A stretch of 64,000 nucleotides of DNA. It comes from Patescibacteria group bacterium. Its GTDB lineage: Bacteria > Patescibacteriota > Patescibacteriia > PEXW01. This document shows positions 24,429 through 55,877 of the stretch, one piece after another. Numbering within the stretch: position 1 is the stretch's first letter; each line of letters begins with the position of its first letter. The DNA lies in NCBI GenBank assembly GCA_041665345.1, contig JBAYJA010000003.1, positions 39,202 through 103,201 on the forward strand. Direction: 5' to 3'. A model generated the notes under the pieces. It saw only the letters and a list, made by a program, of their open reading frames with translations, did no database searches and had not been told where the DNA came from. A program made the translations under genes and the position numbers.

Positions 24429-24562
24429 AAAGAATAATAATCCAGAGACTGCTCGAAGTTTGAATCTGGTAGCCCTTATAGGAAAAGGCTGGAATCAGCT
24501 TATTGTAAGTCTTGTTAGTTTCAACGAGTTATATAGTGGTCAATTTTCCGAGCAACAGCAGG

Positions 24563-28438: not shown

Positions 28439-28441
28439 AAA

Positions 28442-28798: not shown

Positions 28799-28859
28799 AT
28801 TCTAATTATACGCTTAAAACAATTATCTGTGATGATTGCTGTATTATATTCGCGCTAGC

Positions 28860-29111: not shown

Positions 29112-29122
29112 AATGATTCAAA

Positions 29123-29494: not shown

Positions 29495-29628
29495 ATCTCT
29501 GAACGGTTTTATCTGGTAGAAAGCACAAAGCCCCCCGCCAGCGATGACCTTTCGGCCACCCATACCCCTTTCGGAGCATGACCGTTCAGAGTGCTCTGGA
29601 CGAGGAGCTTTATACTCTGAACGGTTTT
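29495..29628. promoter_or_regulatory. repeated 13-14 nt motif (CTCTGAACGGTTTT) in divergent intergenic region; candidate operator sites
   Basis: ctctgaacggtttt at 29497-29510 and 29615-29628 (direct), accgttcagag at 29581-29591 (inverted). These sit between the divergent genes 29123..29494(-) and 29739..30557(+). Confidence 0.35.
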
Positions 29629-29738
29629 GTTGCCATGCCCTAGCAAAGCTAAGGTTTAGGCGATAAAATTAAATTGCTAGTATTTATACTTCAATTGCTT
29701 GATAATTAGAGTGAAACATATCAATTTTACTCGAAAAA

Positions 29739-30557: not shown

Positions 30558-30576
30558 TTTTAAGTAAAGCTGAATT

Positions 30577-30597
30577 GGCCCATAATGGGCTTTTTTT
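30577..30597 (+). terminator. rho-independent terminator
   Basis: gccca taa tgggc hairpin followed by ttttttt. Confidence 0.6.
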
Positions 30598-30860
30598 GTT
30601 TCCCATTTAATTATGTCCAAAAAGCTGGGGATAAGTTAGCGCGTGCATAATCAAAATGTCGCGAGGAGCACACTCACAGTGCTCAAAGGGCGACAGTAAA
30701 TAAATCCTTTGAAGATTGTGAGCTACGCCTCTAGACCAGCTCGCCAAACGGTGATGATAAGCAGTCTCATAGTACTAGCAGTAAATACTATAAGACTACT
30801 ATCACCGGCGGCAGACTGGGGAGAGGGAAGGTGCCTTAAGTAACTAATCCGGTGGGTAAT

Positions 30861-31043
30861 ATGTCAACTAAGCGACAAGAAGCAAACCAGACAAAGCAGA
30901 TCAGGGTTGCAAAAGGTAACCATAAAGGGTTGAAGATTTTTGCCGCTCGCGAAGGAATGCCAATGATGGCCTTAGCAGATCAAATTATCAGCCAATATCT
31001 TTACGAAACATATCGCTGGCCAGAATACCATGTTGACGATTAA
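30861..31043 (+). CDS. small putative ribbon-helix-helix-like regulator upstream of integrase
   Basis: MSTKRQEANQTKQIRVAKGNHKGLKIFAAREGMPMMALADQIISQYL has a beta-strand then two helices. GGTGGG SD before ATG 30861. Confidence 0.35.
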   Translation: MSTKRQEANQTKQIRVAKGNHKGLKIFAAREGMPMMALADQIISQYLYETYRWPEYHVDD

Positions 31044-31221
31044 ACAGTGTAGACAAATTGAGCCAAGCCTTTCTGAACTTTCTGATGAGGAAATTGTTCA
31101 TCTTCGTGATTCTATGTATGAACTAGCCACTCTGGCTTTTGAATCCACTCAAAAACAAGGGGGTGTTTCCAAAAATCCCACTTGGGTAATGCCAACTTTT
31201 AAAGAAGACGCTAATATATAA
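31030..31221 (+). CDS. small hypothetical protein upstream of integrase (low confidence)
   Basis: 63-aa ORF overlapping the previous stop by 14 nt and ending 6 nt before the integrase start. Confidence 0.3.
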   Translation: MLTIKQCRQIEPSLSELSDEEIVHLRDSMYELATLAFESTQKQGGVSKNPTWVMPTFKEDANI

Positions 31222-31226
31222 ATGCG

Positions 31227-32756: not shown

Positions 32757-32790
32757 AAAGCCGATGTCCTAACCGTTAGACGATAGGGCC
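32716..32790 (-). tRNA. tRNA-Glu (anticodon UUC)
   Basis: RC gives GGCCCTA TC GTCT AACGGTTA GGAC A TCGGC TTTTCAA GCCGG TAATC GGGGT TCGATTC CCCGT GGGGCTA CCA, a cloverleaf with T-loop GTTCGATTC, anticodon loop UUUUCAA (UUC) and encoded CCA. Closely resembles bacterial tRNA-Glu. Confidence 0.85.
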
Positions 32791-32930
32791 GTGATACAGC
32801 AACCTATAACGAATAATACCTGCGGTCAAGGGTTTTGCCTAGGACTTGATGGGTTACTTACCCCCGGCGAAAAGTTTTCTGCATTTAGGCTTGCGCGTCT
32901 TCGAACGAGCATTAAACCCCGCCTCCCTCT

Positions 32931-34298
32931 TTACTTGAACCCGAAGAGTGGTGGGAAGAGGAAGATGACAAGGGAAGCCCAGGCTGCATAGACCGGTATG
33001 TAGTTCGTTTGCCATCGCTCAATGTGCGCGAACGTCCCCCGCCCGCGGAGGAAACGCACGTACAGCACGGTTGACCACGCAAGATTGACGAGCAAGATAA
33101 AATTTTCGCCCAAGGCCGCAACCCGGTTTGGGCTAAAGCCGAATTCAGAGATGCGCGAGGCAATTGCCCACAGTGCCACTGCATCGGCCAAGAGGGCGCT
33201 CACCAGCAGGACCACTTGCAAGACATCAAAGGCGTTGCGAGGGGCCAGCGGGGCGCGGGCGGAGATGGAGTAGACCAGCAAGCCAAGGACGACCACTAAG
33301 AGCAAATCGAAGGCAATGAGGATGTTGCGGTCAACGTCTATGCCATGGCCTGACACCACGATGGTGACCAGGAACACCACCAAGACGATGGCGAAGAGGG
33401 GCGTGAACAGCCGGGTTAACACTGGCGCCATGTTTTCAATCACACTCTGCTTCGCTTCCACCAACCACGAGCCAATGATAACCGCTCCCGCTGCACCGCA
33501 CGGGATAATCCAGGTGCCAACAATTGGCTCTACATTGAAACCGATTGACTGAAAAATCGCAAAGAGAAAGCCAGTGAGCACGCCGCCACCCAAGGCAATG
33601 AGCACGTAGTAAATGAGCAGCTCGCCTGTGTAGCGGATGAAGTCCATGCGGCCGGCAACGTCACGCCAGCGTTTTCCGGCATAGGCCAGACCCACAATGA
33701 GCCACATTGCAATGGGCACGTGCAAGCTGGTGAGAGCTTCGGTGGAGCCGCCGGCCAGGAAAGGGTAGGCGTTCGCACCTATCGCACCAATGACAAACCC
33801 AATAGCCGCGGGAATGATCGTCTGACGAGAGACGCCCCGCTTCCAGATGAAGTAGGCAGCCAAGATGGGCAGGACGAAGAAGCTGATATTCCGCATGTAG
33901 AAACTTTCATCATGCTCAATATCCAGGCCGAAGATCGTCGGAAGCTTCACCAGTAAGCCCGCGACTATCGCCAAGCCAAAAGCGACGGCTGTTTCTCTGC
34001 GGCTCCCCCGCTTGGAGTGCTCTGCATCCGGAGAAGTGAGCACGAGCTGCTTCCACAGCCGATCCGAATGCTCCCGGGCGAATTCTTTGGACAGTGCATC
34101 CAGATTCCCCATCCGCTTGACGGCAATCAGAAACGCTTCATCCGCAGCTAAGCCGGCATCGGTCAGCCCGGTGATGTGCTCGCGCAGATGGTCTTCCAGT
34201 TCGGCCACGTCGGTTGCCTGGATAACTTGGTGGCGCTGGAGGAAGTTTCGCCACTGATTGATTTGCTCCTCAAGCTGTTCGGTCTGGGGTGTTGGCAT
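32931..34298 (-). CDS. HAAS (DUF1700)-like N-terminal domain + polytopic membrane (DUF4153-like) protein, partner of PadR
   Basis: N-terminal ...LEDHLREHITGLTDAGLAADEAFLIAVKRMGNLDALSKEF fits the HAAS pattern, followed by at least 8 TM segments. Its start is 9 nt after the PadR stop. Confidence 0.55.
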   Translation of the reverse strand: MPTPQTEQLEEQINQWRNFLQRHQVIQATDVAELEDHLREHITGLTDAGLAADEAFLIAVKRMGNLDALSKEFAREHSDRLWKQLVLTSPDAEHSKRGSRRETAVAFGLAIVAGLLVKLPTIFGLDIEHDESFYMRNISFFVLPILAAYFIWKRGVSRQTIIPAAIGFVIGAIGANAYPFLAGGSTEALTSLHVPIAMWLIVGLAYAGKRWRDVAGRMDFIRYTGELLIYYVLIALGGGVLTGFLFAIFQSIGFNVEPIVGTWIIPCGAAGAVIIGSWLVEAKQSVIENMAPVLTRLFTPLFAIVLVVFLVTIVVSGHGIDVDRNILIAFDLLLVVVLGLLVYSISARAPLAPRNAFDVLQVVLLVSALLADAVALWAIASRISEFGFSPNRVAALGENFILLVNLAWSTVLYVRFLRGRGTFAHIERWQTNYIPVYAAWASLVIFLFPPLFGFK

Positions 34299-41326: not shown

Positions 41327-43024
41327 ATGAAGAAAGTCCTCGCTGTGCTCTCCGTGCTCGCACTTACCATTGCCGTGCTCCCACTGCGCCCATCGGCAGC
41401 GGTGGCTGCGGGTGTGAACCTCGTACTCAACCCATCCTTTGAGACGGGAACCACCAGCCCAACCTCGTGGTCCAAGGTGAATGGCTCCTCACGGAATCGG
41501 GCGACCTTTACTTACCCCGCTACCCCAGCCTTTGACGGGGCGAAGGCAGCGCGGATTACCGTGACCACGTATAAATCCGGTGATATTGGCTGGGCGTCTG
41601 CCAACTTTCCTGTGACCGCAGGGCTGCAGTATGATCTGTCCGTTTCCTCCAAGTCCGGCGTTTCCAGCACAGTCTTGGCAGTCTACAAACGCGCCGGCGG
41701 TGTTTCATCCACGGTCTCCCTGGGAACCGTGTCCGGAACAAATGCCTGGAAGACATTCACCAAAGTCGTCACCATCCCCGCGGGTGTGACCTCCATGTCC
41801 TTGCGCCAAGTGCTTCGGCGCACAGGTACTTTGGATGTAGATGCGTACTCCTTCAGCCTGCACGTCACAACCCCAACAACCCCAAACTTGATTGCGAACG
41901 GCGATTTGGAAAGCCTAACGCCTGGCACGCCTTCTCAGCCGCTATCGTGGACGACGGGATACTGGGGTACGCTCACGCCAGTCTTCACGTATCCCGTGGC
42001 AGGGAAGACCGGCAACGGCGCAAAAGTGCAGGTGACCAGCTACACCTCCGGTGATGCCAAGTGGGTGTTCAACCCCGTGGCCACCTCCGGTGGGAAGACG
42101 TACACGATCGCCTTTGACTACGCTGCAAACGTGGCGACGAACGTGTCCATTGAGTTTCACATGACTGATGGTTCGTACACTTACGCCTGGTTGGGTGACC
42201 CTGCAGCCAGCGCTGCCTGGACGACCTTCAACAGCCAGTTCACCTCCCCGGCTGGTTCGGACTCCTTCACCGTTTTCCAATCCCTGGTGAGCGTGGGGAC
42301 GTTGACTATTGATAACTACGTTGCCATGGATATCACCTCTGGTGCGCTGAACTTTGCCAACGGGATGATCACCCTGGACTTCGACGACACAATTTTGGAT
42401 CACTACACGGTGGCTCGGCCAATTCTTAATGCCGCTGGTATCAAGGCTAGCTTCTTCGCTATTACAGATCCAAGTGTTGGCATTGGTTCAGATGGGTACA
42501 TGACCTGGACCCAGGTGCAGCAGCTCCAAGCTGACGGTCACGAAATTGGCGCACACACCCGTACGCATGCTGATCTGGCCTCGCTGACTTTGGCACAGGC
42601 GCAGGCAGAAATTGTCGGTTCCAAAGCAGACCTGGCAGCGCGCGGCATTACAGCAACGAGCTTTGTGTACCCTTATGGCGTGCACAATGCCGCCATTCGG
42701 CAGATGGTGCAAGACGCAGGCTTCACCAGCGCCCGGAGCGTGAGCGATGGGTACAACTTCCCGGGCTCCAACAAGTTTGCCTTGCTGGACAAGCACGTTG
42801 AGTCCACCACCACGCTGGCGGATGTGCAGGGCTGGATTAACCAAGCCAAAGCCAACAAGACCTGGCTGATGCTGGAATTGCACGAGCAGACCAACACCCC
42901 CGGGCCAGACACGGGTGTGTACTACAACACCCCAGCAATGCTGCAGAATATCGTCAACGCGATTACTGCCAGCGGGATTCAGGTAGTGACCCAAGCGCAA
43001 GGTCGAGCCTTGATGAATCCGTAA
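41327..43024 (+). CDS. secreted polysaccharide deacetylase with two N-terminal CBM4/9-like carbohydrate-binding modules
   Basis: Signal peptide MKKVLAVLSVLALTIAVLPLRPSAAVAAG. Two NPSFE.G...W CBM-like repeats. NodB motifs ITLDFDD, HEIGAHTRTH, then YGV and ELHEQ. Confidence 0.85.
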   Translation: MKKVLAVLSVLALTIAVLPLRPSAAVAAGVNLVLNPSFETGTTSPTSWSKVNGSSRNRATFTYPATPAFDGAKAARITVTTYKSGDIGWASANFPVTAGLQYDLSVSSKSGVSSTVLAVYKRAGGVSSTVSLGTVSGTNAWKTFTKVVTIPAGVTSMSLRQVLRRTGTLDVDAYSFSLHVTTPTTPNLIANGDLESLTPGTPSQPLSWTTGYWGTLTPVFTYPVAGKTGNGAKVQVTSYTSGDAKWVFNPVATSGGKTYTIAFDYAANVATNVSIEFHMTDGSYTYAWLGDPAASAAWTTFNSQFTSPAGSDSFTVFQSLVSVGTLTIDNYVAMDITSGALNFANGMITLDFDDTILDHYTVARPILNAAGIKASFFAITDPSVGIGSDGYMTWTQVQQLQADGHEIGAHTRTHADLASLTLAQAQAEIVGSKADLAARGITATSFVYPYGVHNAAIRQMVQDAGFTSARSVSDGYNFPGSNKFALLDKHVESTTTLADVQGWINQAKANKTWLMLELHEQTNTPGPDTGVYYNTPAMLQNIVNAITASGIQVVTQAQGRALMNP

Positions 43025-43047
43025 TTGTTGCAACAATTTTCCCACGA

Positions 43048-43072
43048 ACCCGGCCACATGGTCGGGTTTTTG
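43048..43072 (+). terminator. rho-independent terminator after the deacetylase gene
   Basis: cccggcc acat ggtcggg hairpin followed by ttttt. Confidence 0.55.
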
Positions 43073-43200
43073 GTACATTACGAATTACGAAATAAAGATA
43101 CGAAAATACGTCCGGCGAAGCCGGATCCGGCTCCGCCGGAAATTATGAAAAGAAAGGAGTTACGCCCCGCGGTGTGAGGTCCCGCAGCTCGACCAGGGAT

Positions 43201-43262
43201 TATTGAACGGGAGGTAGAGGTGTGGAGGCTCGTTAGGTTGGAGGGTGGAGGTTTGGGATGGG
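43201..43262 (+). repeat. G-rich intergenic repeat (family GAGGTGTGGA.GCT.GTTAGG.TGGAGG), copy A
   Basis: ggaggtagaggtgtggaggctcgttaggttggagggtggaggtttgggatggggagggagg. Related copies occur at 47027-47054 (+) and 47100-47134 (-), with weaker ones at 53893-53925 and 21290-21340. Confidence 0.55.
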
Positions 43263-43446
43263 GAGGGAGGGGTCTGTGAAAATTTGGCTTGATTTGAAGC
43301 AATCTAGATTTTTGTAGTACAGACTTTGGGCCAGTAAGGGTTACCCCTCCTAACCCCGGGGTGCTTCCGATGGGTCGCACCCGCCTGCTGGCCCCCTTGG
43401 AAAGGGGAGGACAGATACAAACAGACTTGGTCTGTAATGAACCGCA

Positions 43447-43504
43447 AACTCCTCCCCTCCTTTTGAAGGAGGGGGGAGGGGGAGGTAACCCTGATGGGGA
43501 AGAC
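43447..43504 (+). repeat. approx. 60-nt GC-rich hairpin repeat, copy 1 (inverted copy at 53834-53890)
   Basis: aactcctcccctcc ttttgaa ggaggggggagggggaggtaaccctgatgggga is about 92% identical to the reverse complement of 53834-53890. Stem ctcccctcc/ggagggg with loop ttttgaa. Confidence 0.6.
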
Positions 43505-43701
43505 TAAGGTGCAAAGAACCAGGAGCGCAAGAAGAACACGTTTGGCATACCCTTCCCTATCTTATTCGGGCTGAAGGTTTTCCTCTTGACGACTACACCC
43601 TACCGGCGTAAGGTGTTCTGAAACCCACACCCTGGCAGTGCCAGGGGTATAACATAAACAACTGCAGCGAGCAGTGCTCGAAAGGCAGTACGGAGGTAAC
43701 A

Positions 43702-44910: not shown

Positions 44911-46736
44911 AGCGGAATTTCCTTCACCACGTGCGCAAGCAGGCCAAGAAAGTCCGTGGACCAGATGGCTGGTTTGCATTAGGGTTGCTGGTGCTCCTGG
45001 TTGCTGTCCTGGTGGCCGTGCCCAAACTCTATGCCAAGACCATTGTCCCTGGAGTGTGGATTGGGAATATGCCCGTGGGCGGGAAGACCGTGGCCGAAGC
45101 AACAGAGTTGCTGAATGTTCGGATGGATGTGCTGTACGACAAAGGCGTGAAAGTAACCATTGATGGGAAGACCACGAACCTGGCGACGCAGCAAGCGATT
45201 ACGGCCAGCGACGTGGCTCCCCCACTGGTGGATGTGAATGTGGAAGCCAGTGTGGACGGGGCGTTTGCCTATGGTCGAAACTTCGGCGTGGTACGCAGCA
45301 CGTTGCAGGCCTGGCGCGCCATGCTCTTCCGCAAACATGTTGACCCAGCCATGGAAGCAGATCCAACCTACATTGCTGATGCCTTGCACAAGCAGTACGG
45401 CGCGAAAGACAATCCAGCACAGGATGCACACCTGCAGTACGTTGGCGGTACGTTTCAAACCAAACCCGAGCAAGCCGGCAAAGCGTTGCAGTACGAGCCA
45501 GCAGCCATCGAAGTAGTTCGTGTCTGGAAAGCCTTGGCCGAGCCAGCGGTGACTCTGGTGGAAGGTGAAGATGTGGCGAAGGTGAAGGTTGCAGATGTGG
45601 AAAAGTTTTTTGATGATGCGCAAGAGATTGTTGACCGTGCGCCGGTAACCTTGCAGGTACCGGATGGTGAGGCGGTAACGTTGAACGCGGCAGCCGTGGC
45701 TGGGGGTCTGGACGTGATTCCTGGTACCAAGCGCGGGTCGTTCACATTGGCGTTTACCGAAGCGAAGTTACAGAAAACCCTAGACAGCATTCGGGCGAAG
45801 ACCGATGTGGAAGCCCAGGATGCGCGTTTCCAGATCAGCGGAGGAAAAGTTACTGAGTTTGCTGCCGGGAAAATTGGGAAGCAGCTTGATGACGCGGCAA
45901 CGGTGGCTGCGCTGAACACTCAGGTCATTGGGAAAGACGCAAGTGTTGCGGTTGCTGTAGTGACGACTGTCCAACCGCAGTCAGCGGCAGACAGCGCAGC
46001 GGAGCTGGGCATTACTGAGCTGGTGGCGACCGGGAAAACGAATTTCGCCGGCAGTCCTACCAATCGCCGGAAGAACATTGCCAACGCGGTGAGGTTACTG
46101 AATGGATTGCTGATTCAGTCCGGCGAGGAATTTTCATTGGTGAAAGCGCTGTCCCCCATCGAACTTAGCAACGGGTACTTCCCAGAGTTGGTCATTAAAG
46201 GTAATCGGACCATCCCAGAAGTTGGCGGCGGTCTCTGTCAGGTTGGTACCACCATGTTCCGTTTGATTCTCAATTCCGGCCTGCCCGTCTTGGAACGGCG
46301 GAACCACAGCTACCGGGTGAGCTACTACGAGCCGCCCGTGGGCATGGACGCTACCATTTACGATCCCAGTCCAGATTTCCGATTCACAAACGACTACGCC
46401 ACAGCCTTGCTCCTCCAAACTCGGGTGGTGAAAGACGATCTCATCTTTGACTTCTACGGTACCAAAGATGGCCGCGTGGCGCACTCCTCTACGCCCAAGC
46501 TTTTCAATGTCACCAAGCCACCAGCGGTGAAGTACATTAAGACCACAGACATGGCCGTGGGGCAGAAGAAGCGTCTGGAGCGGGCGCACAACGGCGGGTC
46601 AGCGGAGTTTACCTATACGGTGACCAAAGATGGGAAGACCACCACCAAAGTCTTCACCAGTAAGTACCGTGCCTGGCAGGAAGTCTGGTTGGTTGGCGCC
46701 ACTGCTGAGGAAGTTGCAGCTGAGCAAGCAGCGTGA
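44907..46736 (+). CDS. VanW family protein (membrane-anchored)
   Basis: N-terminal TM anchor. C-terminal VanW core GEEFSLVKALSPIELSNGYFPELVIKGNRTIPEVGGGLCQVGTTMFRLILNSGLPVLERRNHSYRVSYY. Confidence 0.85.
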   Translation: MKRNFLHHVRKQAKKVRGPDGWFALGLLVLLVAVLVAVPKLYAKTIVPGVWIGNMPVGGKTVAEATELLNVRMDVLYDKGVKVTIDGKTTNLATQQAITASDVAPPLVDVNVEASVDGAFAYGRNFGVVRSTLQAWRAMLFRKHVDPAMEADPTYIADALHKQYGAKDNPAQDAHLQYVGGTFQTKPEQAGKALQYEPAAIEVVRVWKALAEPAVTLVEGEDVAKVKVADVEKFFDDAQEIVDRAPVTLQVPDGEAVTLNAAAVAGGLDVIPGTKRGSFTLAFTEAKLQKTLDSIRAKTDVEAQDARFQISGGKVTEFAAGKIGKQLDDAATVAALNTQVIGKDASVAVAVVTTVQPQSAADSAAELGITELVATGKTNFAGSPTNRRKNIANAVRLLNGLLIQSGEEFSLVKALSPIELSNGYFPELVIKGNRTIPEVGGGLCQVGTTMFRLILNSGLPVLERRNHSYRVSYYEPPVGMDATIYDPSPDFRFTNDYATALLLQTRVVKDDLIFDFYGTKDGRVAHSSTPKLFNVTKPPAVKYIKTTDMAVGQKKRLERAHNGGSAEFTYTVTKDGKTTTKVFTSKYRAWQEVWLVGATAEEVAAEQAA

Positions 46737-46745
46737 GGAAGTCGT

Positions 46746-46780
46746 AAAGCTGTAAAGCCATAGAGCTGTAGAGGTCTTGA
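46746..46780 (+). repeat. tandem short repeats gtaaagctgtaaag / atagagctgtagag (also at 53702-53735)
   Basis: cgtaaagctgtaaagccatagagctgtagagg versus gccgtagagctgtagagcggtaaagctgtaaggg at 53702-53735. Confidence 0.5.
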
Positions 46781-46883
46781 AGGCTCGTGCCATTCTGTAA
46801 TTGTGAAGTCTCGCCTTTGGCGGGGTGTGGCCGACGAGGCAGGTATTGTAGTACGGAGTCGTAACGCGGCAAACGTTTTATTT

Positions 46884-46961
46884 TTCTGTCATCCTGAATC
46901 ATATGAAGGATCTCCAGACTATGGATGAACCTCGGAGATTCTTCGTCAGACTCAGAATGAC
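46884..46961 (+). repeat. nested inverted-repeat (double hairpin) element
   Basis: Outer IR tgtcatcctga (46886-46896) / tcagaatgaca (46948-46958). Inner IR gaaggatctcc / ggagattcttc. Related tctgtcat motif at 53741. Confidence 0.45.
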
Positions 46962-47026
46962 AAAGGGAGGGAAGGATTAAGGTTAGGTTTTCGATGGTGG
47001 ATGGAAGAGGGGGATGCGGGTCAGGC

Positions 47027-47134
47027 AAGGGTATGGATGCTCGTTATGGTATAGGGTATGGAAGAAGGGTGCTCTGCATTTTTTCACCAAACCCAAGACC
47101 TCCACCCTAACAAGCATCCACACCTCTATCCTTC
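47027..47134. repeat. imperfect palindrome formed by two inverted copies of the G-rich repeat family
   Basis: gggtatggatgctcgttatggtataggg (47027-47054) and the RC of 47100-47134 (gaggtgtggatgcttgttagggtggagg) align at about 80% identity, forming potential long hairpin arms about 45 nt apart. Confidence 0.5.
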
Positions 47135-47196
47135 AACCATGCTCGTCATACCCAAACCCCCGCTACATAAGCTTGTGTACGTAAAAAAGTAGGTAA

Positions 47197-47230
47197 GAAA
47201 AAACCAGGCGTCCGAAGCGTCTGGCTTTTT
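47197..47230. terminator. bidirectional rho-independent terminator
   Basis: aaaaaa ccaggcg tccgaag cgtctgg cttttt, a 7-bp stem (one G-U pair) with both an A-run and a T-run. It lies 76 nt downstream of gene 47307..47951(-). Confidence 0.55.
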
Positions 47231-47306
47231 GGTAGGAACAATTTGGGGAAGGGAGGTTCGTCGTCGGGCACGATCCGTGTGCTCGGGAAGTAGGTTATCA
47301 CTGGTT

Positions 47307-47951
47307 CTAGAACATAGTTGCGAGTGAACGTTTCAGTGACTGGTACATATTATCGTTCTGCTCAAGTCTCGCCTGCGCCTGATTCTCGCTCAAGCCGCTG
47401 ATCCAGGTTTTTCCCTGTGAAAGGGAGATTTCAATGAATGCTCCAGGCTGCAAAGATGTGCCTGTTGCTATTTCCATCTCACCCGCTTTGAAGACTGAAC
47501 CTTCGGGTTTCTGTGCGACTTGCTCTGCCTCATCTAGATGTAGCTGTCTACAGTAGAGAACGGTTTTGCCAGTCTCTTCTCCGCAGTTCATCATGATTTC
47601 GTACTGTCCAGATTCAAGGTTTGTTAATCCAGATCCAGCATCGGCAACTGCGCCATTTCTCTGACTGCCGACCGTTATGAATGCGAAGGCCAAGAATACG
47701 GATGATGCAGTTAGTCCCCAGCGAAGGACGCGGTTACGCCCCTCATGGACTTTAATAGCAGCTTTCCCCCACCACTTTTCCTGGAGTTCAGCAGCATTAA
47801 AGTTCTTCGTGTACTTGGCAGCGAGGTAGCGTAAACCACCAGTCGCTGCGAGGCACAGAAGAAATAATGTCCCCCAATCGATGTCCGTAATGATCCAGGA
47901 TTTCGTGGCAACGAAGAAATCGAGGATTAACCGGATAATGTCTTGAACCAC
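47307..47951 (-). CDS. hypothetical membrane protein
   Basis: 214 aa with N-terminal TM segments. No recognisable domain. Confidence 0.5.
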   Translation of the reverse strand: MVQDIIRLILDFFVATKSWIITDIDWGTLFLLCLAATGGLRYLAAKYTKNFNAAELQEKWWGKAAIKVHEGRNRVLRWGLTASSVFLAFAFITVGSQRNGAVADAGSGLTNLESGQYEIMMNCGEETGKTVLYCRQLHLDEAEQVAQKPEGSVFKAGEMEIATGTSLQPGAFIEISLSQGKTWISGLSENQAQARLEQNDNMYQSLKRSLATMF

Positions 47952-48395
47952 GTTTACCTCCTTGTGTAGTGTAACGTGCGTTGTTAGGTTACGGTTTATT
48001 TCCCTTCAATCTAATAATAACAAAAATCAGCTACCCATCTGCAGCCGAGGGCAAGAGGAATCTGCAGCCAAGAAGATTGTAACGTGGTAGGACGCAGAAA
48101 AAATCCGTGTCCACCGCGCTACAACCCCCATGCTTGTCGTGGCTGCAGGTTGCTCCTGCCGGGGTTGTATCGGGGTGCAAATGGCTAGCTGGTTTATCAA
48201 GGTGGTGCGTTTGGGAACAGCACTGCTGTACACGCAAAACACCTCTTTCAGAACGTGTGACCTTAGCACTGGGTGCAAATCCTGTCAAGGCCTGGGGAGC
48301 GAATTTGGCTAAGGTTAGCCAAAAAGTGCCTTGATTCTTCTGAAAAAGGGTGGTACGCTTGGCAAGCTACAGTATTTTCCCCTTCATTATCGCAT

Positions 48396-49907
48396 ATGAT
48401 TGTTACTCCCGTCCCCTACCGTTCCAAACCCACAAGCCGCGTGACGATTCTCGCCCTCTTTGCCAAGGCAGAGGTGCGACAGCACCCGTTCTTTTCCGGT
48501 TTACCCAGTGGTGTGCAGCAAACTGTCCTTGCATTTGTGAAGTCCAAAGAATTTGCAGGCCGGGCTGATGAAGTGCGGGTGATCCCCTACGGCAGTACCG
48601 GCAAGTCAGTACTCCTGCTGGGATTAGGTGAGAAGAAAACCTGGAACCATCGGACAGCAATGGTAGCGAGCCGACGCATTGTCATGGTGGCAAAGCAGCA
48701 CCGTTTGGTGGATGTGGCAGTGCGTTTGGAAGATTTGGCGTGGGCGAATGCTTCTCCTTCGGCAGTGGCCCAGGTGATTACGGAGAACGCGCACCTGGCA
48801 CACTACGATTACACGCGGTACCGCAGCTCGCCCACGGGTGGCTGGCCGAATGTCCGCAAGCTCACCCTGCTTTGTGCAGTAGGCATCCTCCCAGCAGTGA
48901 AGCGCGGGGTGAAGGCTGGTACGGTGATTGCTGACGCGACGAATCACGCGCGGGATTTGGCAAACACGCCGGGTGGCGACTTAACACCCGAGGGGGTTTC
49001 TGCTGCTGCGGTGAACGTTGGGAAGGACCACGGTGTCCGCGTACACGTTCTTCATAAGAAAGATTTAGAAAAGTTGGGTGCTGGTGGCATCCTGGGTGTT
49101 GCCCGAGGTTCTGATGCGCCCCCAACGCTGACCATCATGGAGTACGCCGCACCAGGCCATGCCAAAGACCAGCCACTTGTCTTCATTGGTAAAGGGGTGA
49201 CCTTTGATTCCGGTGGTTTGAATGTGAAGCCAGATACGTCCATGTACGAGATGCACATGGATATGTCGGGTGGTGCAGCCGTCATTGGTGCCCTGGCGGC
49301 GGTGGCGCAGCTGAAGCTCCCTGTCCGGGTCATTGGACTTATCCCAGCGGCTGAGAATATGTCGGCGGGCGCGGCGTACCGGCCAGGTGACCAGCTGAAG
49401 AGTTTATCAGGCAAGACTATTGAGGTGATGCACACTGATGCCGAAGGTCGCATTCTGTTGGCTGACGCCCTCACCTATGCGGAACGCTACCAGCCCGCAG
49501 CAGTTATTGATGTGGCCACACTGACCGGAGCCGCGGTTGTAGCCTTAGGAAATCGTGCTGCAGCGCTGCTCTCCCCCAATGAAACATTCTCTCAGGAATT
49601 GCGGACGCTGGCGGAAACGAGCGGAGATTTTGCCTGGCCGCTCCCTTTGTGGACAGAGTACGAAGCTGAAATAAAAGGCACGTTTGGAGACTTCTCGAAT
49701 ACAGGGAAAAGTCGGAGTGGTGGGGCGATTACCGCCGCTGCGTTCCTGTGGCAGTTTGCCAAGAAGTTTTCCAAATGGGCGCACATGGACATCGCGCCAA
49801 CTATGACCAGTATTGAAGGGCAGCACTTGGCCAAAGGTGCCACCGGAGCAGGTACGCGCTTGTTGGTTGCTTACGCTCGGAGTCTCGTTGCGTCATTGCA
49901 AGAGTAA
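48396..49907 (+). CDS. pepA: leucyl aminopeptidase (M17 family)
   Basis: M17 signatures NHARDLANTPGGDLTPEG, VFIGKGVTFDSGGLNVKP and NTDAEGRILLADALTYAE. Start at ATG 48396. The alternative GTG at 48273 would add 41 aa. Confidence 0.85.
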   Translation: MIVTPVPYRSKPTSRVTILALFAKAEVRQHPFFSGLPSGVQQTVLAFVKSKEFAGRADEVRVIPYGSTGKSVLLLGLGEKKTWNHRTAMVASRRIVMVAKQHRLVDVAVRLEDLAWANASPSAVAQVITENAHLAHYDYTRYRSSPTGGWPNVRKLTLLCAVGILPAVKRGVKAGTVIADATNHARDLANTPGGDLTPEGVSAAAVNVGKDHGVRVHVLHKKDLEKLGAGGILGVARGSDAPPTLTIMEYAAPGHAKDQPLVFIGKGVTFDSGGLNVKPDTSMYEMHMDMSGGAAVIGALAAVAQLKLPVRVIGLIPAAENMSAGAAYRPGDQLKSLSGKTIEVMHTDAEGRILLADALTYAERYQPAAVIDVATLTGAAVVALGNRAAALLSPNETFSQELRTLAETSGDFAWPLPLWTEYEAEIKGTFGDFSNTGKSRSGGAITAAAFLWQFAKKFSKWAHMDIAPTMTSIEGQHLAKGATGAGTRLLVAYARSLVASLQE

Positions 49908-49910
49908 GGT

Positions 49911-50939
49911 ATGGCGAAAGTGATAAATAATGTTCTGACCCCGGAAGAGCAACCAGAAGAGCAGACTTTTGACATTAGCCTGCGACCAAAGAAATTGGCG
50001 GAGTACGTGGGGCAGTCGCAGATTAAGGAGAGCCTGGTCATTGCTATTCGAGCAGCGCAGCACCGCAAAGAAGCGCTGGACCACGTGCTGCTGTACGGCG
50101 GCCCGGGTTTGGGCAAGACCACGCTGGCACACGTCATTGGCGAAGAGCTAGGCACCACTGTCCGCGTGACCAGTGGTCCGGCCTTGGAGCGCGCGGGTGA
50201 CCTGGCTGCCATTCTCACTAACCTGGCCGAAGGTGACATTCTCTTCATTGATGAAATCCACCGCTTGCCCCGCGCCGTGGAAGAAATTCTGTACCCGGCG
50301 TTGGAAGATTTTGCCATCGACATTGTCGTGGGTAAAGGCCCCGGCGCCCGCACGCTGCGTTTGGATTTACCGCACTGCACCATTGTGGGTGCGACCACGC
50401 GTTTAGCGCTTCTCTCGGGGCCACTTCGAGACCGGTTTGGGTTGACGTTCCATTTGGACTACTACACGGACGAAGACATTGCGGCAATTTTGGAACGCTC
50501 GGCTCGGTTGCTGAATATCACATTGGATCCAGCAGCCAAGCAGCTGCTCTCCACCCGCGCGCGCCGTACCCCCCGGGTTGCGAATCGACTACTGAAGCGG
50601 GTTCGGGACTTTGCTCAGGTACGGCACGATGGCGTGGTTACCGTGCCCGCGGCAACTGCAGCCCTGGAGCAGCTGGGCATTGATACGCTGGGCCTGGATG
50701 TGGTTGACCGGCGCGTGCTCACCACGATCATTGACCAATTTAATGGCGGGCCGGTAGGTTTGAGCACGGTCGCAGCAACTACCGGTGAAGACATGCAAAC
50801 GCTGGAAGATGTGGTGGAACCGTTCCTCTTGCAAATGGGCTTGCTCGCTCGTACCCCGCGGGGTCGGGTAGCCACGCCCGCCGCGTACACACACCTGGAG
50901 CGGGAGATGCCCAAGGATTTGCAGCAAAGGTTGGTCTGA
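49911..50939 (+). CDS. ruvB: Holliday junction branch migration helicase RuvB
   Basis: AAA+ Walker [29 protein letters not shown] and a C-terminal winged helix. Confidence 0.95.
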
Positions 50940-51002
50940 GGGGTAGCGAGTTAGTGCGTTGGCAAGCTGGCGAGTTAGTAAGTATTCATATTTTGGGTAT
51001 AC

Positions 51003-51028
51003 AAAAACCGACACGGGTGAGGTGTCGG
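51003..51028 (-). terminator. rho-independent terminator for 51051..52055
   Basis: ccgacac gggtgag gtgtcgg hairpin with an A-run upstream on plus. Confidence 0.55.
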
Positions 51029-51050
51029 CTGAAAGGTGCATGATAGAAAA

Positions 51051-52055
51051 CTACAAATTTGCGTAGTACCGCTCGGCGCATTTTTGTGCCATTGTGATCG
51101 CAGCCTGCTCATTCGGAAAGTCGCCGAACTGAGCGAGGAGGCTCACAGTGGCGCCGTCAGCACTCCGGACGTATAGGACAGGTTCAACATTAGGTTCAGC
51201 ATCAGGTCGGTAGCTCCCCTCCACAATACTAATAGCATCCGGTGTGACCGCAACACAGGCATGGTAGTCGGCTCTCTGAACAGCGAGCAAGCGATTCCCG
51301 AATTCTTGTGGCGGCGTGGGAAAGTGGACGATAACTGATGCATTTCCATTTACCGGATAGTCGAACAAATTTGGCCAGTAGTTTTTGAGCCTTTTTTGTT
51401 CCCATAAACGCCTCTGCTGTTCATGGACACTATTGGATCGGAGTTTACTAGCTTTCTTTGAGTCCAAGACGATTAATGTGATGACGCATAAAATTGTCAG
51501 GATCCCGACTGGGAGCCATATTGCACTTTTCTGCAACCTGAGCACGCATGTTCCCACAAAGGAGAGAAGCATTAGGATGATTGTGATTTTCGTCGCGGTG
51601 TCTTCCATTCTTTGAGAATATAAGAGTTTTTTCTCAAATTCATCGTGTCGGAATAGTATTCCTGTGCGCCCCTGCGCATCCATGTTTTCAAAGCGGTACA
51701 GTCCGCAGGCCAGGCAGAAGTCTTGCCAAAGCTTTGCGGGTAGTGTGGCCAAAGGCATGGTACCGGTCTTGGAGAGCACCTCGGCTTCAAAGTTCCGAAT
51801 CGCAAGTTCTTCGGCGTCCAGCGATCCCAATTGCTGCGGGTTCTTGTAGCCCACAACCGTTGAGACAGTAAATCCTGCGAGTTCCTCCTGTTGGTAGATG
51901 GGCTCACCTGGTTCATTGTGATCAATGCTCGCTCGGATAGATGACCGCAGTTGGTTCCGACGTTCTTCGGTTACCTCTGCGAGAGTAAGAATTGGGTTCA
52001 TGTATTCCTCCTGCACGAAGGGTTTTAGGTTTTCAAGATTACTTTCTTTATTCAA
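51051..52055 (-). CDS. hypothetical membrane protein
   Basis: 334 aa with two central TM helices. No recognisable domain. Confidence 0.5.
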   Translation of the reverse strand: MNKESNLENLKPFVQEEYMNPILTLAEVTEERRNQLRSSIRASIDHNEPGEPIYQQEELAGFTVSTVVGYKNPQQLGSLDAEELAIRNFEAEVLSKTGTMPLATLPAKLWQDFCLACGLYRFENMDAQGRTGILFRHDEFEKKLLYSQRMEDTATKITIILMLLSFVGTCVLRLQKSAIWLPVGILTILCVITLIVLDSKKASKLRSNSVHEQQRRLWEQKRLKNYWPNLFDYPVNGNASVIVHFPTPPQEFGNRLLAVQRADYHACVAVTPDAISIVEGSYRPDAEPNVEPVLYVRSADGATVSLLAQFGDFPNEQAAITMAQKCAERYYANL

Positions 52056-52134
52056 CTGACTTTACAATGCTGGATGTTCATTGTCAAGCATTTGTCGACT
52101 TTCTTTGATTCGACCAAAAAGCTATACTAATGAT

Positions 52135-52389
52135 ATGGAATTTAGCGCGTCGCTCATGCTCATCCCTTTCATCCTCCTGCTTTTGGCTTGGGGGTTTTTC
52201 AGTATTATCGCCATCCGGCAGGTGCTGCGCTTTGGATTCCTCACCCCAGTTGCTGTCCTCTCATCTTGTGCATACCTAGCTTTCTCTCTGATTATTGTCA
52301 CCATGGTGATCACTGAACTCCGGGGCGTTGACTGGTCAGCGGTTGTTACCGTGCCACTTCCCTCATTCTCCAGTACCCCAACCCTATGA
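52135..52389 (+). CDS. small membrane protein (3 TM)
   Basis: MEFSASLMLIPFILLLLAWGFFSIIAIRQVL.... Its stop overlaps the start of the next gene (ATGA). Confidence 0.4.
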   Translation: MEFSASLMLIPFILLLLAWGFFSIIAIRQVLRFGFLTPVAVLSSCAYLAFSLIIVTMVITELRGVDWSAVVTVPLPSFSSTPTL

Positions 52390-53039
52390 GGTTGCGCCCC
52401 ACATTTCCGGGGATGGTGCCGGGGGAGAAAGTTGTCCTGCTCTTGCACCGGCACTGGGTCTTTGGCTTGCGTTTGATTCTCGCTCACTTTGTTTTTATCA
52501 TTCCCCCGCTCGCTGCCTGGTGGGTACTGGGGCGGTACTCAACCGTCCTGGTGGATGGGACAAGCGCAGCGTACGCTTTTACCATTCTCCTCTTTGGGAC
52601 GTATGCACTTTTTTGGGCACTCGCCTTCTTCATTGCGTGGTTAAATTTTTACTTGGATACGTGGATTATCACTAACGAACGCATTATCAACATTGAACAG
52701 TTGCGCCTTTTCTACCGAACGGTTTCCGAGCAAAAGCTTTTTCGGGTGCAGGACGTCACGACTGATGTGCATGGGTTCTTTGCTGGCATTTTCCGGTACG
52801 GCAACGTGAGTGTGCAAACCGCCGCAGAAAAAGAGCGCTTCGTCTTTGAGCAAGTGCCGCACCCAGAAGACGTGGCGAAGACGATTATGCACCTCTTGGA
52901 ATCCATTGAATCGCAAATTGGCCTGGACGCCATGGCCAGGATTGAAGGGGACATTCCGCCGCCGGGACCAGCTACGCCGCGTTCCCAATCGCCGAAAGTC
53001 CCGCCCGCTCCAAAAGCACCAACCGGCTCAGCTGGGTAG
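52386..53039 (+). CDS. bacterial PH domain (bPH_2/YdbT-like) membrane protein
   Basis: GEKVVLLLHRHWVFGLRLIL..., two TM segments, then the bPH core ...TWIITNERIINIEQ...QDVTTDVHGFFAGIFRYGNVSVQTA. Confidence 0.65.
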   Translation: MRLRPTFPGMVPGEKVVLLLHRHWVFGLRLILAHFVFIIPPLAAWWVLGRYSTVLVDGTSAAYAFTILLFGTYALFWALAFFIAWLNFYLDTWIITNERIINIEQLRLFYRTVSEQKLFRVQDVTTDVHGFFAGIFRYGNVSVQTAAEKERFVFEQVPHPEDVAKTIMHLLESIESQIGLDAMARIEGDIPPPGPATPRSQSPKVPPAPKAPTGSAG

Positions 53040-53670
53040 CGTAGCCAAGCCAGTACTTCTGCTGGCGGCTCGCTTCCAATTCCACGGAGAAATTTTGCCA
53101 CACCGTTGGCTGCAGCCGCAGCCGAGTTTTTGCGCGGTCGCTATCAATGTCTGCTAAGCACGCACTCAGCCGGAACACTGCATCCCAGTTGGCGCTGTTG
53201 TTCTCCGCGTCAATGACATTTTGCACGCTGTCCCAGTCTGTGTCCGTCACCAACGCTGGCCGAAACCGATCTGCATCTGCGCCGTGCAAGTGCATGGCGT
53301 GAATGGTAAAGGCGGCCCAGTTTTGGGCTGCGCGGTGCGCATCAAGAACCCCAAGCATGGCTGCCCACAGATCTTCTGGTACCACAAGAATTGCTCCACG
53401 GGCAGGGTCGAGTTTCTTGAGGTGTGCCAGCCAGGCGGCGACGTTCTGCCAGTCTGCAGTTGCTTCCACTCTGGAGAGTTCACCCATAAGCCCTTCCCAA
53501 TCCACATCCGTCACTTCAAGCTGTTGTGTTCGCATTGGATCAATCATCATCAAATGCGCGCCCAACCAGGCAAAGTCATGCCAGCGTCGGCTCGCCGAAG
53601 CATTGGTGAGTTCTTGGACCATCGCTGCCCAGGTTTCCCCGTCGAGTAATTCCGTTGCAGACTTGAACAT
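52972..53670 (-). CDS. hypothetical protein with about four tandem approx. 45-aa repeats
   Basis: Start at MFKSATELL (ATG 53670). Repeat units ...TDxDWxxLxxxLxxxxAxxNWxAxxxHLxxLD.... Overlaps the 3' end of 52386..53039 (convergent). Confidence 0.45.
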   Translation of the reverse strand: MFKSATELLDGETWAAMVQELTNASASRRWHDFAWLGAHLMMIDPMRTQQLEVTDVDWEGLMGELSRVEATADWQNVAAWLAHLKKLDPARGAILVVPEDLWAAMLGVLDAHRAAQNWAAFTIHAMHLHGADADRFRPALVTDTDWDSVQNVIDAENNSANWDAVFRLSACLADIDSDRAKTRLRLQPTVWQNFSVELEASRQQKYWLGYATQLSRLVLLERAGLSAIGNAA

Positions 53671-53833
53671 GCAGGAAGTATAGCAGGGGGGAGGGGGAAG
53701 CCGTAGAGCTGTAGAGCGGTAAAGCTGTAAGGGCTTTTCTCTGTCATTGCGAGCTCCAGCAGGAGCGTGGCAATCTTTCGGTAATACGGAACCAGGCTGC
53801 ACCCTTTTTGCATACCTGGTTTATTTCACAATG

Positions 53834-53890
53834 TCTCCCCATCAGGATTACCTCCCCCACCCCCTCCTTCAAAAGGAGGGGAGGAGTTTT
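53834..53890 (-). repeat. approx. 60-nt GC-rich hairpin repeat, copy 2 (inverted relative to 43447-43504)
   Basis: RC reads aaactcctcccctccttttgaaggagggggtgggggaggtaatcctgatggggagac. Confidence 0.6.
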
Positions 53891-53975
53891 AGCTCTCAGC
53901 CATACCTCCTATCCGGCCCACACCTCCACCCAAAAACTCCACTCGCTGCCCCAACAAAACCGAGGCTTAATTACC

Positions 53976-55877
53976 TCAGTACACCTTCCGCAGGCTAATG
54001 CCGGTGTAGTAGTTGGTGAGAATCCAGTCGTAGGTTTTGCCTTGGTCTTTGGCGTACTTCAAGGCGCCAAAGGCAGACATGCCCACCATGTGGTTTCCCG
54101 AGCCGCCAGTAAGGTAGCTGGTTGGGTAGGGTGGCGTGGTGCAGGTGCCAATGGCATCTGGCACAGTCAGGAGGTACGGAAAGTAGATTTGATCGTAGCC
54201 CCACACTTCAGGGATGCTGCGCGTCCGGCCGTCCGTGCAGGAAGAGTACGCGGCGACAATTGCGCCCACAGTGTTCTTGGGTGACACGGCTGCGCTGTGC
54301 GTGGCGACAATGCCACGTGTCGCAACGACTGCTGCTACCAAGTTTGGCACTTTCAGTTCATACCCATACCCACGGTATACCTGGTCCGTGGTTGCATTGA
54401 TATCGTAGAATTCATCTGCGTGCTTGGTCTGCCGAAGATTGTGGAAGAGCGCGTACGTCCGCGCCGCAACAACCAAACTTTTCATAAATTCGGTTGGACC
54501 AGTATTCCCAGTTTCCGCTAAGCCGCTGACGTACTGCTCCATAAGGAGCTCATTAATCACCCAAACTTTTCCCGTGGCCGGGGTGGAACGAAATTCCAGG
54601 AGGTTGCGGAATTTGTTGTACTGGCCGTTCCAGCTGGTGATGGTGAGAATTGCAGGCGTGGATTTACCGAAGAAACGGTACGGCCCCGTCACCTTCTTGG
54701 TCACCCCGTTGAGCGTGTAGCTGTACGCACCTTGGAGATAGGTGAAGCGGACTATTGTCGCTGCTGGAATTTCTTCCAGCGTTGTGCCGTCCGCGTCGGT
54801 CAGTAGTGCAAGCTGGTCACTGCTCACTTCCACCCAGCCGTCAGACGTCGTGACCACACCCACACGCACGGTTGGCTCAGCAGCCAGCACAGCGCCAGCT
54901 CCTTCTACAACCGGGGCAGGAACAACCACGGTCAGCGTCACCTCGCCATTCACCACGCGGGTCAAGTTTGGAACCACTATTTGCGCGGCTTGGCTAAATT
55001 CACCGTACGCATCTGGTGCCTGCAAGGCAAAGCGGAAGGTCCCCTTCTTGCCGGGTTTCACTTCCCCAGTCGTCAGACGGCCAATGATGGTTTTGGAAAT
55101 CCAATTCGCATGGTAGAACGCGCTGGTTTTTGACGGATCCACCAAAGCCAGAACCACGGCGCCAGGTCCGGAGCGTTTCCAGGTTTGCGTGCCGGTGTTC
55201 GTCACGGTGAAGGAAAACGTTTTTGCCTTGCCTTTGGGCATGGTGAAGGTCGTGTCCGTAGACACGCCACCGCTCATCCGATACTGCGCAGCCTTGGGAT
55301 CGTCTGCTCGCAAGAGGAGTTCAAATGCACCGCCAGGCATCCAGTCCACGCCCTTGATCGCCAGGGAAAATCGCTCTCGATACTCCCCCGCTTTGGTTGG
55401 CGCGCGGAGTTTGAAGCTGAGGCGAACAGTTTCTCCAGGCTTCACATTTTTGGCGAGCTTGGCTGGCCGATTAAAGGCGTTCCAGGATTTGTCGCGGAGT
55501 TTGGTGGCGGTGTTTGGGACGAGTTCAGTTTTCTCCAAACGGACGGGGTTGAGCGCAACGAGATTGTTGCCGTTGGCGAGCCAGGTCTTGGTTCCGGTAT
55601 TCTTCACGTCCACCCAAAAGTCCACGGCGGCTTTGGGTTCCACAAACAGCGCATCGGTGGAACGACGAAGAATTTCCGCGCGGTACGGCGGGGTGACCGG
55701 TTTCTTTGCAGGAGCCGCGTTACTGTACAAGGGCAAGGACAGCCCAGCCATGACAAACAGCGCCCCAAAAATTTGTAGGGCGGGTCGGAAGAAAACGTAA
55801 CGCGGCAGTGCGGGGTACTTTTTCGTTTCCACGCTTGCATCATAGCATGAAAAGTGGTCAAATGTCAATTCGTTCAT
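53976..55877 (-). CDS. SpoIID/LytB domain protein (secreted peptidoglycan-remodelling)
   Basis: C-terminal ...LMEQYVSGLAETGNTGPTEFMKSLVVAARTYAL...YDINATTDQVYRGYGYE...THSAAVSPKNTV...EVWGYDQIYFPYLLTVPD matches SpoIID/LytB. N-terminal TM plus repeated beta-rich domains. The start is uncertain. Confidence 0.8.
   Translation of the reverse strand: MNELTFDHFSCYDASVETKKYPALPRYVFFRPALQIFGALFVMAGLSLPLYSNAAPAKKPVTPPYRAEILRRSTDALFVEPKAAVDFWVDVKNTGTKTWLANGNNLVALNPVRLEKTELVPNTATKLRDKSWNAFNRPAKLAKNVKPGETVRLSFKLRAPTKAGEYRERFSLAIKGVDWMPGGAFELLLRADDPKAAQYRMSGGVSTDTTFTMPKGKAKTFSFTVTNTGTQTWKRSGPGAVVLALVDPSKTSAFYHANWISKTIIGRLTTGEVKPGKKGTFRFALQAPDAYGEFSQAAQIVVPNLTRVVNGEVTLTVVVPAPVVEGAGAVLAAEPTVRVGVVTTSDGWVEVSSDQLALLTDADGTTLEEIPAATIVRFTYLQGAYSYTLNGVTKKVTGPYRFFGKSTPAILTITSWNGQYNKFRNLLEFRSTPATGKVWVINELLMEQYVSGLAETGNTGPTEFMKSLVVAARTYALFHNLRQTKHADEFYDINATTDQVYRGYGYELKVPNLVAAVVATRGIVATHSAAVSPKNTVGAIVAAYSSCTDGRTRSIPEVWGYDQIYFPYLLTVPDAIGTCTTPPYPTSYLTGGSGNHMVGMSAFGALKYAKDQGKTYDWILTNYYTGISLRKVY

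Follow-up and report, generated by a model that had tools for sequence, protein, structure and literature searches.

Long intergenic gaps in a 64-kb stretch of contig JBAYJA010000003.1 from a Patescibacteria group bacterium (the window, that is, the whole 64,000 nucleotides analysed) carry recurrent sequence modules. We consider it likely that these gaps are mosaics of small dispersed DNA repeats, like the bacterial interspersed mosaic element (BIME) clusters of Escherichia coli, and that their main module is a class II intrastrand triplex motif. A sequence-only reading of the window had assigned modules shared by four non-coding stretches to one miniature repeat or structured-RNA family. The sharing was borne out, with repeats far above chance and mostly at or near the places first reported, and the modules are multi-copy. 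The idea of a single family was not, because the flagged gaps are a mosaic of at least four unrelated modules: (i) a 55-nt hairpin module; (ii) G-rich/C-poor tracts of ~100 nt; (iii) tandem GTARAGCN octamers; and (iv) GTCATT..AATCTC hairpin units. Regions A to C are placed by public gene calls and Pfam.

43025-43701 (677 nt), region A: gap after the polysaccharide deacetylase gene at 41327-43024 (+)
46737-47306, region B: gap between the convergent VanW gene (+) and a 214-aa open reading frame (ORF) at 47307-47951 (-)
53671-53975, region C: gap flanked on both sides by minus-strand genes (a SpoIID-like gene and a 232-aa gene)
21276-21379, short stretch: between two minus-strand genes

The 55-nt hairpin module and its triplex motif

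A GC hairpin of about 60 nt at 43447-43504 had been proposed to recur as the reverse complement of 53834-53890, and alignment recovered it: 43446-43500 (+) and the reverse complement of 53836-53889 are 94.5% identical over 55 nt (E ~1e-16), and the 26-nt core of the module matches twice in the window versus 0 expected. Both copies are intergenic and lie on opposite strands. We scanned the window according to the published rules for intrastrand triplex motifs (ITxF rules: stem of at least 8 triads, at most 1 mismatch, loops of 1-6 nt) and found exactly two motifs in 64 kb, which are the two hairpin module copies; the same scan of 30 block shuffles preserving local composition returned no motifs.

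43446-43507 (+): hairpin module copy 1 (repeat alignment)
43454-43488 (+): triplex motif in copy 1 (ITxF-style scan), with pyrimidine arm 43454-43463, loop 43464, purine arm 43465-43474, linker 43475-43478 and reverse-Hoogsteen arm 43479-43488 (GGGGAGGTAA)
53829-53890 (-): hairpin module copy 2 (alignment, ITxF-style scan and folding as single-stranded DNA)
53881-53848 (-): triplex motif in copy 2, with pyrimidine arm 53881-53872, purine arm 53870-53861 and reverse-Hoogsteen arm 53857-53848

In both copies, the pyrimidine arm, purine arm and reverse-Hoogsteen arm (CCCCTCCTTT, GAAGGAGGGG and GGGGAGGTAA) follow one another in this order on one strand. Each copy has 10 triads with 1 mismatch, 9 of them contiguous and perfect, where the definition of the class allows 6-15 triads and at most one mismatch. 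Loop 1 measures 1 nt (3 nt when only 9 triads are counted in the stem), and loop 2 measures 4 nt in the region A copy and 3 nt in the region C copy (definition, 1-6 nt). Folded as single-stranded DNA, copy 1 reaches -15.1 kcal/mol (z -2.55).

Two independent assemblies of the same organism stop at or within ~50 nt of the hairpin repeat copies: one (L122) ends at window position 53833 and the other (L207) starts at 43399. Such ends fit assembly-graph breaks at multi-copy sequence.

Are the gaps kept in related genomes? The syntenic relative L125 carries a VanW gene 59% identical to that of the window and keeps the order of the HSP20, M17 peptidase, RuvB and SpoIID-like genes. In L125 a 206-nt AT-rich gap replaces region C, no long gap replaces region A, and the gap sequences were not conserved. 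We also searched the gaps by blastn against 80 related contigs; only a triplex-type hairpin core (L144/L184) and a 35-nt TACGAA-type stretch (L126) matched, none of them at positions corresponding to the window gaps. In the syntenic relative the gap sequences are not kept at corresponding places, and the counterparts of regions A and C are much reduced in length.

Comparative evidence and the weighing of alternatives

We searched one genome per species with the pattern TCCTCCCCTCCTT-N3-AAGGAGGGG and found the hairpin core at 120 loci or more in many phyla. Among the matches listed are Phycisphaerae, several groups of the candidate phyla radiation (CPR), Thiomargarita and other Gammaproteobacteria, Betaproteobacteria, Nitrospinota, anammox Planctomycetota, Acidobacteriota, Armatimonadota and Chloroflexota. 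In the core copies inspected, a third conserved segment, GGGG[A/T]GGT(T), lies 3-4 nt 3' of the purine arm. A census of perfect pyrimidine-arm/purine-arm hairpins in all the sequence gathered (~1.9 Mb) showed that this segment is the mirror image of the purine arm, and neither a direct copy nor a reverse complement of it.

Purine arm GGAGGGG: mirror (GGGGWGG) in 76/163, direct copy in 1/163
Purine arm GGGGAGG: mirror in 9/19, direct copy in 0
Purine arm GGAGAGGG: mirror in 6/11, direct copy in 0
Purine arm GGGGGAGA: mirror in 4/5, direct copy in 0
Purine arm GAGGGGG: mirror in 3/6, direct copy in 0
Purine arm GGGAGGGG: mirror in 7/7, direct copy in 4 (overlapping pattern)

The base that mirrors the A of the arm was A in 59 cases, T in 58, C in 2 and G in 1; two loop-proximal A's are mirrored by TT, and the linker measured 3-4 nt in 144 of 187 cases. 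The mirror covariation and the A or T at the mirrored A are what an antiparallel triple helix of the purine motif requires, with triads G*G-C, A*A-T and T*A-T. Within 0.95 Mb of contigs carrying VanW relatives, all 46 of 46 G-rich motifs were of class II, in many sequence variants. That many sequence variants follow one triad rule speaks, on comparative grounds, for maintenance of the three-arm arrangement itself.

Intrastrand triplex motifs are the elements earlier described as BoxC in E. coli and as PIT elements (Hoyne and Maher 2000), and class II comprises those with the pyrimidine arm first, the purine arm next and the reverse-Hoogsteen arm last (Holder et al. 2015, PMC4666352). In a survey of ~5,200 prokaryotic genomes and plasmids, such motifs were abundant and conserved in bacteria; those of E. 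coli are always intergenic, without strand bias and sometimes in inverted pairs, they have no promoter or terminator activity, and the motifs are associated with more rearrangement between strains (PMC4666352). They form a stable triplex as isolated single strands, as shown for TM_ECO, and the purine motif cannot form in RNA (PMC4666352).

What would the window element form? The pyrimidine arm CCCCTCCTT would pair with the purine arm AAGGAGGGG across a 3-nt loop and, after a linker of 3-4 nt, the G/T-rich GGGGAGGTAA, the mirror of the purine arm, would lie antiparallel in the major groove through reverse-Hoogsteen G*G-C, A*A-T and T*A-T triads. The fold would require single-stranded DNA, such as that of a replication fork or of negatively supercoiled DNA, and would not be an RNA structure. 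By analogy with the E. coli work, the elements would be neutral or selfish repeats that accumulate between genes with neither promoter nor terminator activity and that may raise local rearrangement rates, perhaps via replication stalling. The G-rich tracts, octamers, GTCATT units and TACGAA runs would then be separate repeat types sharing the same gaps. As to function, published work links the class only to local genome instability.

Several observations weigh against dispersed triplex repeats, and some of them point to a structured 5' leader or small RNA, made of the hairpin module and the G-rich/C-rich tracts, that would control the HSP20-VanW operon and the 232-aa gene; such a leader might sequester or present a Shine-Dalgarno-like GGAGG. 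Regions A and C have the same order and orientation (end of the upstream gene, G-rich tract, hairpin, next start codon): both copies are oriented alike relative to their flanking genes, 165-215 nt 5' of a start codon, with a G-rich tract on their 5' side, as a shared leader would show. The gene-sense strand also folds better than its complement (region A, -254.8 versus -222.3 kcal/mol; region C, -118.5 versus -103.9 kcal/mol). Shared orientation, G-rich tract and sense-strand folding carry little weight because there are only two copies, a low number that is itself unfavourable, ~73 kb of this organism having been examined. Furthermore, the sequences are of low complexity, and their main class was set by the search pattern used. 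The mirror segment often has a Watson-Crick partner (AACCWCCCC) in other genomes, so part of its conservation could reflect ordinary hairpins. Finally, triplex was not detectable in duplex DNA or in vivo for a related E. coli element (PMC4666352).

An RNA reading would also draw on some CPR and gammaproteobacterial genomes, in which a start codon follows 5-15 nt after the end of the reverse-complemented core, and the core thereby provides a GGAGGA. Across other genomes, however, orientation shows no bias (outside the Phycisphaerales subfamily, 25 cores tandem-same, 20 tandem-opposite, 14 convergent and 12 divergent with respect to flanking genes), the gap sequences are not conserved in L125 and the 80 related contigs, and the 127-aa ORF downstream of region A has its own GGAGGT 5 nt before the start codon. 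A and T are equally frequent at the mirrored position, T being a T-T mismatch in Watson-Crick pairing with the 5' arm, and this fits the triplex rules. At the gathering score of Rfam 15 no family matched the gaps: in the window only LOOT and tRNA were found, both elsewhere, and in 15 core-containing loci none. Searches of regions A, B and C and of one CPR element at permissive E-values gave nothing relevant or credible. Region A had only weak sub-threshold matches, and positions 46700-54000, which hold regions B and C, had none at E<=1; the weak matches of the Rfam searches as a whole were limited to DUF1874, whalefall-1, Chlorobi-1 and generic miRNA hairpins. A leader or small RNA thus seems improbable to us. 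FtsK KOPS, Chi, integron attC and Shine-Dalgarno sequestration were considered as the cause of the cross-phylum conservation and rejected, as both orientations occur and T stands at the mirrored position in half of the copies.

Decay of former protein-coding genes, with the repeats as coding leftovers, is hardly credible as the origin of the long gaps. Long ORFs can be drawn through them, for example at 43078-43380 (-), 46654-47028 (-) and 53747-53998 (+), but the gap ORFs have no Pfam match, their translations read by eye are low-complexity and proline-rich, and the public gene calls leave regions A and C empty. By tblastx the gaps matched nothing in the 0.95 Mb of relatives' contigs and only the repeat itself in 120 core loci. 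The earlier view that the gaps are free of genes agrees with these results.

Mobility offers a further alternative, in which the window copies would be remnants of miniature inverted-repeat transposable elements (MITEs), moved by a transposase encoded elsewhere, and the triplex-like core mere cargo. One Phycisphaerales metagenome-assembled genome (MAG; CBDUZO01) contains at least 23 copies (L024, L013, L049, L051, L076 and ~18 more loci) of a ~170-nt element with CTAG ends; the element is bounded by the terminal inverted repeats CTAGTGCCGTTTC...GAAACGGCNCTAG and encloses an identical core. Many of these copies start 31-36 nt after the upstream ORF, and the TAG of the element is often the stop codon. 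CTAG is a target of the IS630 family, which might tie this element to IS630. CPR genomes contain the core as an inverted doublet forming one long hairpin, and eight viral contigs carry the motif; on one of these, the 23.6-kb IMGVR_UViG_3300044996_000692 (L211, L212), five triplex-type motif copies are all on the same strand. Tandem triplex-type motifs also occur in a Thiomargarita MAG, as head-to-tail arrays of the 41-nt unit TCCTCCCCTCCTTACCAAGGAGGGGTTGGGGGTGGTTAAGT (L002 ~7100-7300, L074 ~1350-1500 and L029). The window copies, however, share only 55-60 nt, and reading of their sequence revealed neither terminal inverted repeats nor target-site duplications that would convince; other lineages lack the Phycisphaerales terminal repeats, a search for full-length elements bearing them having found none, and ORF clustering over the 120 core loci revealed no recurrent neighbouring protein or transposase family. 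We therefore regard a MITE origin of the window copies as unlikely. The E. coli study found no link of such motifs to mobile elements (PMC4666352); the motif lies inside a transposon-like element in at least one genome here.

Dispersed DNA repeats, with the triplex motif as their main module, remain the explanation we favour. The repeat half of the earlier claim (REP/MITE-like elements) is supported because the modules are multi-copy, intergenic, in both orientations and not kept in the syntenic relative, and because of the assembly breaks and the fit to BoxC/PIT. The small-RNA half found no support, because there is no Rfam match and no orientation preference and because the third segment follows mirror/reverse-Hoogsteen rules. 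If this is correct, the gaps are pile-ups of structure-prone repeats and not hidden regulators, which would matter mainly for annotation and assembly. In these data the triplex repeat class reaches uncultured lineages (among them CPR, Planctomycetota and Nitrospinota) and the contigs closest to the window.

A bolder proposal joins two claims: that the pyrimidine-purine-mirror element is a selected single-stranded DNA structure in more than 10 phyla, including CPR, and not a passive repeat, and that the GTC-hairpin-CTC unit described below is new. Taken jointly, we find this doubtful. Under it, the strict class II polarity and the mirror covariation may reflect triplexes that form in vivo and act, for instance, as a signal for recognition or pausing in replication or mobilisation.

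Other modules and the setting of the gaps

The remaining modules of the gaps, with short elements of regions A and B, are as follows.

43191-43304 (+): G-rich/C-poor tract with the module TAGAGGTGTGGAGGCTCGTTAGGTTGGAGGGTGGAGGTTTGG at 43215-43256 (composition scan)
46953-47174 (+): G-rich/C-poor arm 46953-47071, then C-rich/G-poor arm 47072-47174, forming a long imperfect hairpin
53885-53978 (+): C-rich/G-poor tract with GGGTGGAGGTGTGGG, G-rich on the gene-sense minus strand
21276-21379 (+): C-rich/G-poor tract, the short member of the G-rich group, G-rich on the sense strand
46744-46775 (+): four tandem GTARAGCN octamers, directly 3' of the VanW stop codon
53703-53732 (+): four tandem GTARAGCN octamers, in a ~60-nt module (AGTATAGC and octamers)
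46888-46961: GTCAT-stem-loop-stem-ATCTC inverted pair, with unit 1 at 46888-46914 (+, degenerate) and unit 2 at 46935-46961 (-)
53743-53776 (+): GTCATTGCGAG..GCAATCT hairpin unit
47204-47224: bidirectional terminator-like hairpin, between convergent VanW and the 214-aa ORF (terminator scan)
43080-43112 (+): TACGAA-type AT-rich short repeats (ACGAATTACGAA...TACGAAAATACG), from reading of the sequence
43111-43140 (-): GC-rich 13-pair hairpin with a T-rich tail on the minus strand, resembling a terminator of that strand (pattern match in a consensus terminator scan)

In a composition scan of 60-nt windows (26 or more G with 5 or fewer C, or vice versa), no long G-rich/C-poor or C-rich/G-poor tract occurred outside the four flagged stretches; the rest of the window has three short borderline tracts, of which two or more fall within coding regions. 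The G-rich module had been reported three times, and two of these copies were recovered: 43215-43256 and the reverse complement of 47087-47128 are 81% identical over 42 nt, and 90% over 30 nt (E 5e-4). The third, at 47027-47054, was not found at up to 3 mismatches; this diverged segment pairs with 47099-47128 as a hairpin. The tract at 21276-21379 has a weak match to L203 19828-19840. Within the gathered data, G-rich tracts and octamers appear specific to this genome, and further copies of both lie in the 9.4 kb beyond the window start. We also tried region A as one long element with G-rich and C-rich arms and rejected it, the left part scoring 20 against the reverse complement of the right versus 17.7 +/- 2.9 for shuffles.

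The octamer GTARAGCTGTARAG, earlier described as a tandem unit, occurs five times (46744, 46760, 53703, 53711 and 53719) versus 0.02 expected. The octamer-AGTATAGC module (window 53655-53745) stands directly upstream of the start codon at 53670 (-), and a second copy, outside the window at L203 16715-16800, is likewise upstream of an unrelated minus-strand start codon. On the plus strand the module reads CATG..AGTATAGC..AAGCCGTARAGCTGTAG, and on the gene strand GCTATACT; its -10-like TATACT hexamer ends 6-7 nt before the ATG, without a Shine-Dalgarno sequence. These features suggest that the module may be a duplicated promoter for leaderless or near-leaderless messages.

The inverted repeats containing tctgtcat were present as described, at 46888-46914 (+), 46935-46961 (-) and 53743-53776 (+). 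Their general form is GTCATT[SN]GAG, a variable inner hairpin and GAAG[N'S']AATCTC, with covariation in the stem (ATTGC/GCAAT, ATTCT/AGAAT and ATTCC/GGAAT). GTCATT units recur across phyla, often as inverted doublets (also L125 11825-11897, L164 9768-9840 and L185 7652-7717), and in the window, as in L125, an inverted pair lies directly 3' of the VanW stop codon. Rfam gave no match to these units, and we found no name for the type; this GTC-hairpin-CTC unit (GTCATTGCGAG..GCAATCTC) may represent a repeat or structured element, shared across phyla, that has so far escaped description. A hammerhead ribozyme was considered for the GTCATTCTGAGGAG...CGAAG units and rejected, as the CUGANGA core and stem I are missing in most copies.

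The bidirectional terminator proposed at 47197-47230 corresponds to the hairpin at 47204-47224, with an A run before and a T run after it. In region A, the ACGAATTACGAA motif is also found in CPR loci and in relatives' contigs. On the minus strand, the strong hairpin at 43140-43111 follows a stretch that is CU-rich and single-stranded, UAACUCCUUUCUUUUCAUAAUU, and a weak site resembling a promoter; minus-strand 43100-43195 is thus a candidate antisense-strand small RNA.

Downstream of region A, gene calls and Pfam place an operon from 43702 (+), with a 127-aa ORF, HSP20, a 72-aa ORF and VanW. In region B the public gene calls place only an 82-aa ORF, at 46654-46902 (-), which overlaps the 3' end of VanW, has no Pfam match and is probably spurious; a 100-aa minus-strand ORF in region A had no Pfam match. 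The window is contained in a 176,635-bp metagenome contig (ENA ERZ27249449, k141_524871). Same-organism sequences (a JGI contig, two Logan contigs and GCA_041660445.1) are 99.8-100% identical to it wherever they overlap, as are the contigs retrieved via VanW, HSP20 and DnaN; in a look-up for strain variants, neither the ORF of the M17 peptidase nor the last one in the window had an entry.

Other features of the window lie away from the gaps. The presence of dnaN (603-1712) and dnaA (1922-3298) at its start makes a nearby replication origin probable; this region is enclosed by the two arms of a 164-nt inverted repeat (3-166 and 11923-12086), which are 80% complementary. Paralogous genes, most of them with CarboxypepD_reg domains, stand in tandem at ~5800-10450, each followed by a near-identical terminator-like hairpin, AAAACCCCGC..GCGGGGT (6613, 7388, 8809 and 9660). 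A low-GC island at ~24000-33000 (~0.38-0.44 versus ~0.55 elsewhere) ends at tRNA-Glu (32716-32790) and is probably an integrated element; it contains a large serine recombinase (31227-32756), an Mrr-type restriction endonuclease (27323-28438) and a LOOT RNA (29543-29662, 91.5 bits) directly upstream of a 146-aa ORF.

Comparison with known repeat systems

Like repetitive extragenic palindromic (REP) sequences, BIMEs and REPINs, the modules are short extragenic palindromes in multiple copies, several types of which form mosaics in one gap, and REPIN-like inverted doublets are seen among the GTCATT units and among CPR copies of the triplex core; the triplex copies of the window are single units, not doublets. 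No RAYT-type transposase, the kind that mobilises REP/REPIN elements, was found nearby (ORF clustering of 120 loci, with the window genes partly screened). REP families are usually species-specific, whereas the core pattern recurs across phyla here, and a mirror-image third arm is no REP feature. MITEs of the IS630/Tc1-mariner type resemble the Phycisphaerales core, which lies in a ~170-nt element with terminal inverted repeats and CTAG, and differ from the window copies, which have neither terminal inverted repeats nor a target duplication.

With BoxC/TM_ECO, the window copies share the three-arm architecture, a core of 34-37 nt and the intergenic position, and motifs of this kind are sometimes in inverted pairs. 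They do not match its consensus, CCCTCNCCC-N3-6-GGGNGAGGG-N3-GGGNGAGGG; BoxC-like sequences occurred only in other loci, for example those of Thiomargarita (L002) and L175-L177. The likeness to ITxF class II/PIT motifs extends to the arm order, the triads (G*G-C, A*A-T and T*A-T, 9-10 of them), loops of 1-4 nt, and G/C-rich, intergenic, multi-copy occurrence on both strands, with class II exceeding class I in the related contigs. In contrast to the published motifs, the window copies are based on AAGGAGGGG, not on GGGNGAGGG, and have a genome-specific conserved 3' extension, AAYCCTGATGGGGA; their host, an uncultured bacterium, falls outside the groups studied. Thus, on arm order and consensus, the window copies are within the triplex structural class and outside the TM_ECO sequence family of E. 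coli.

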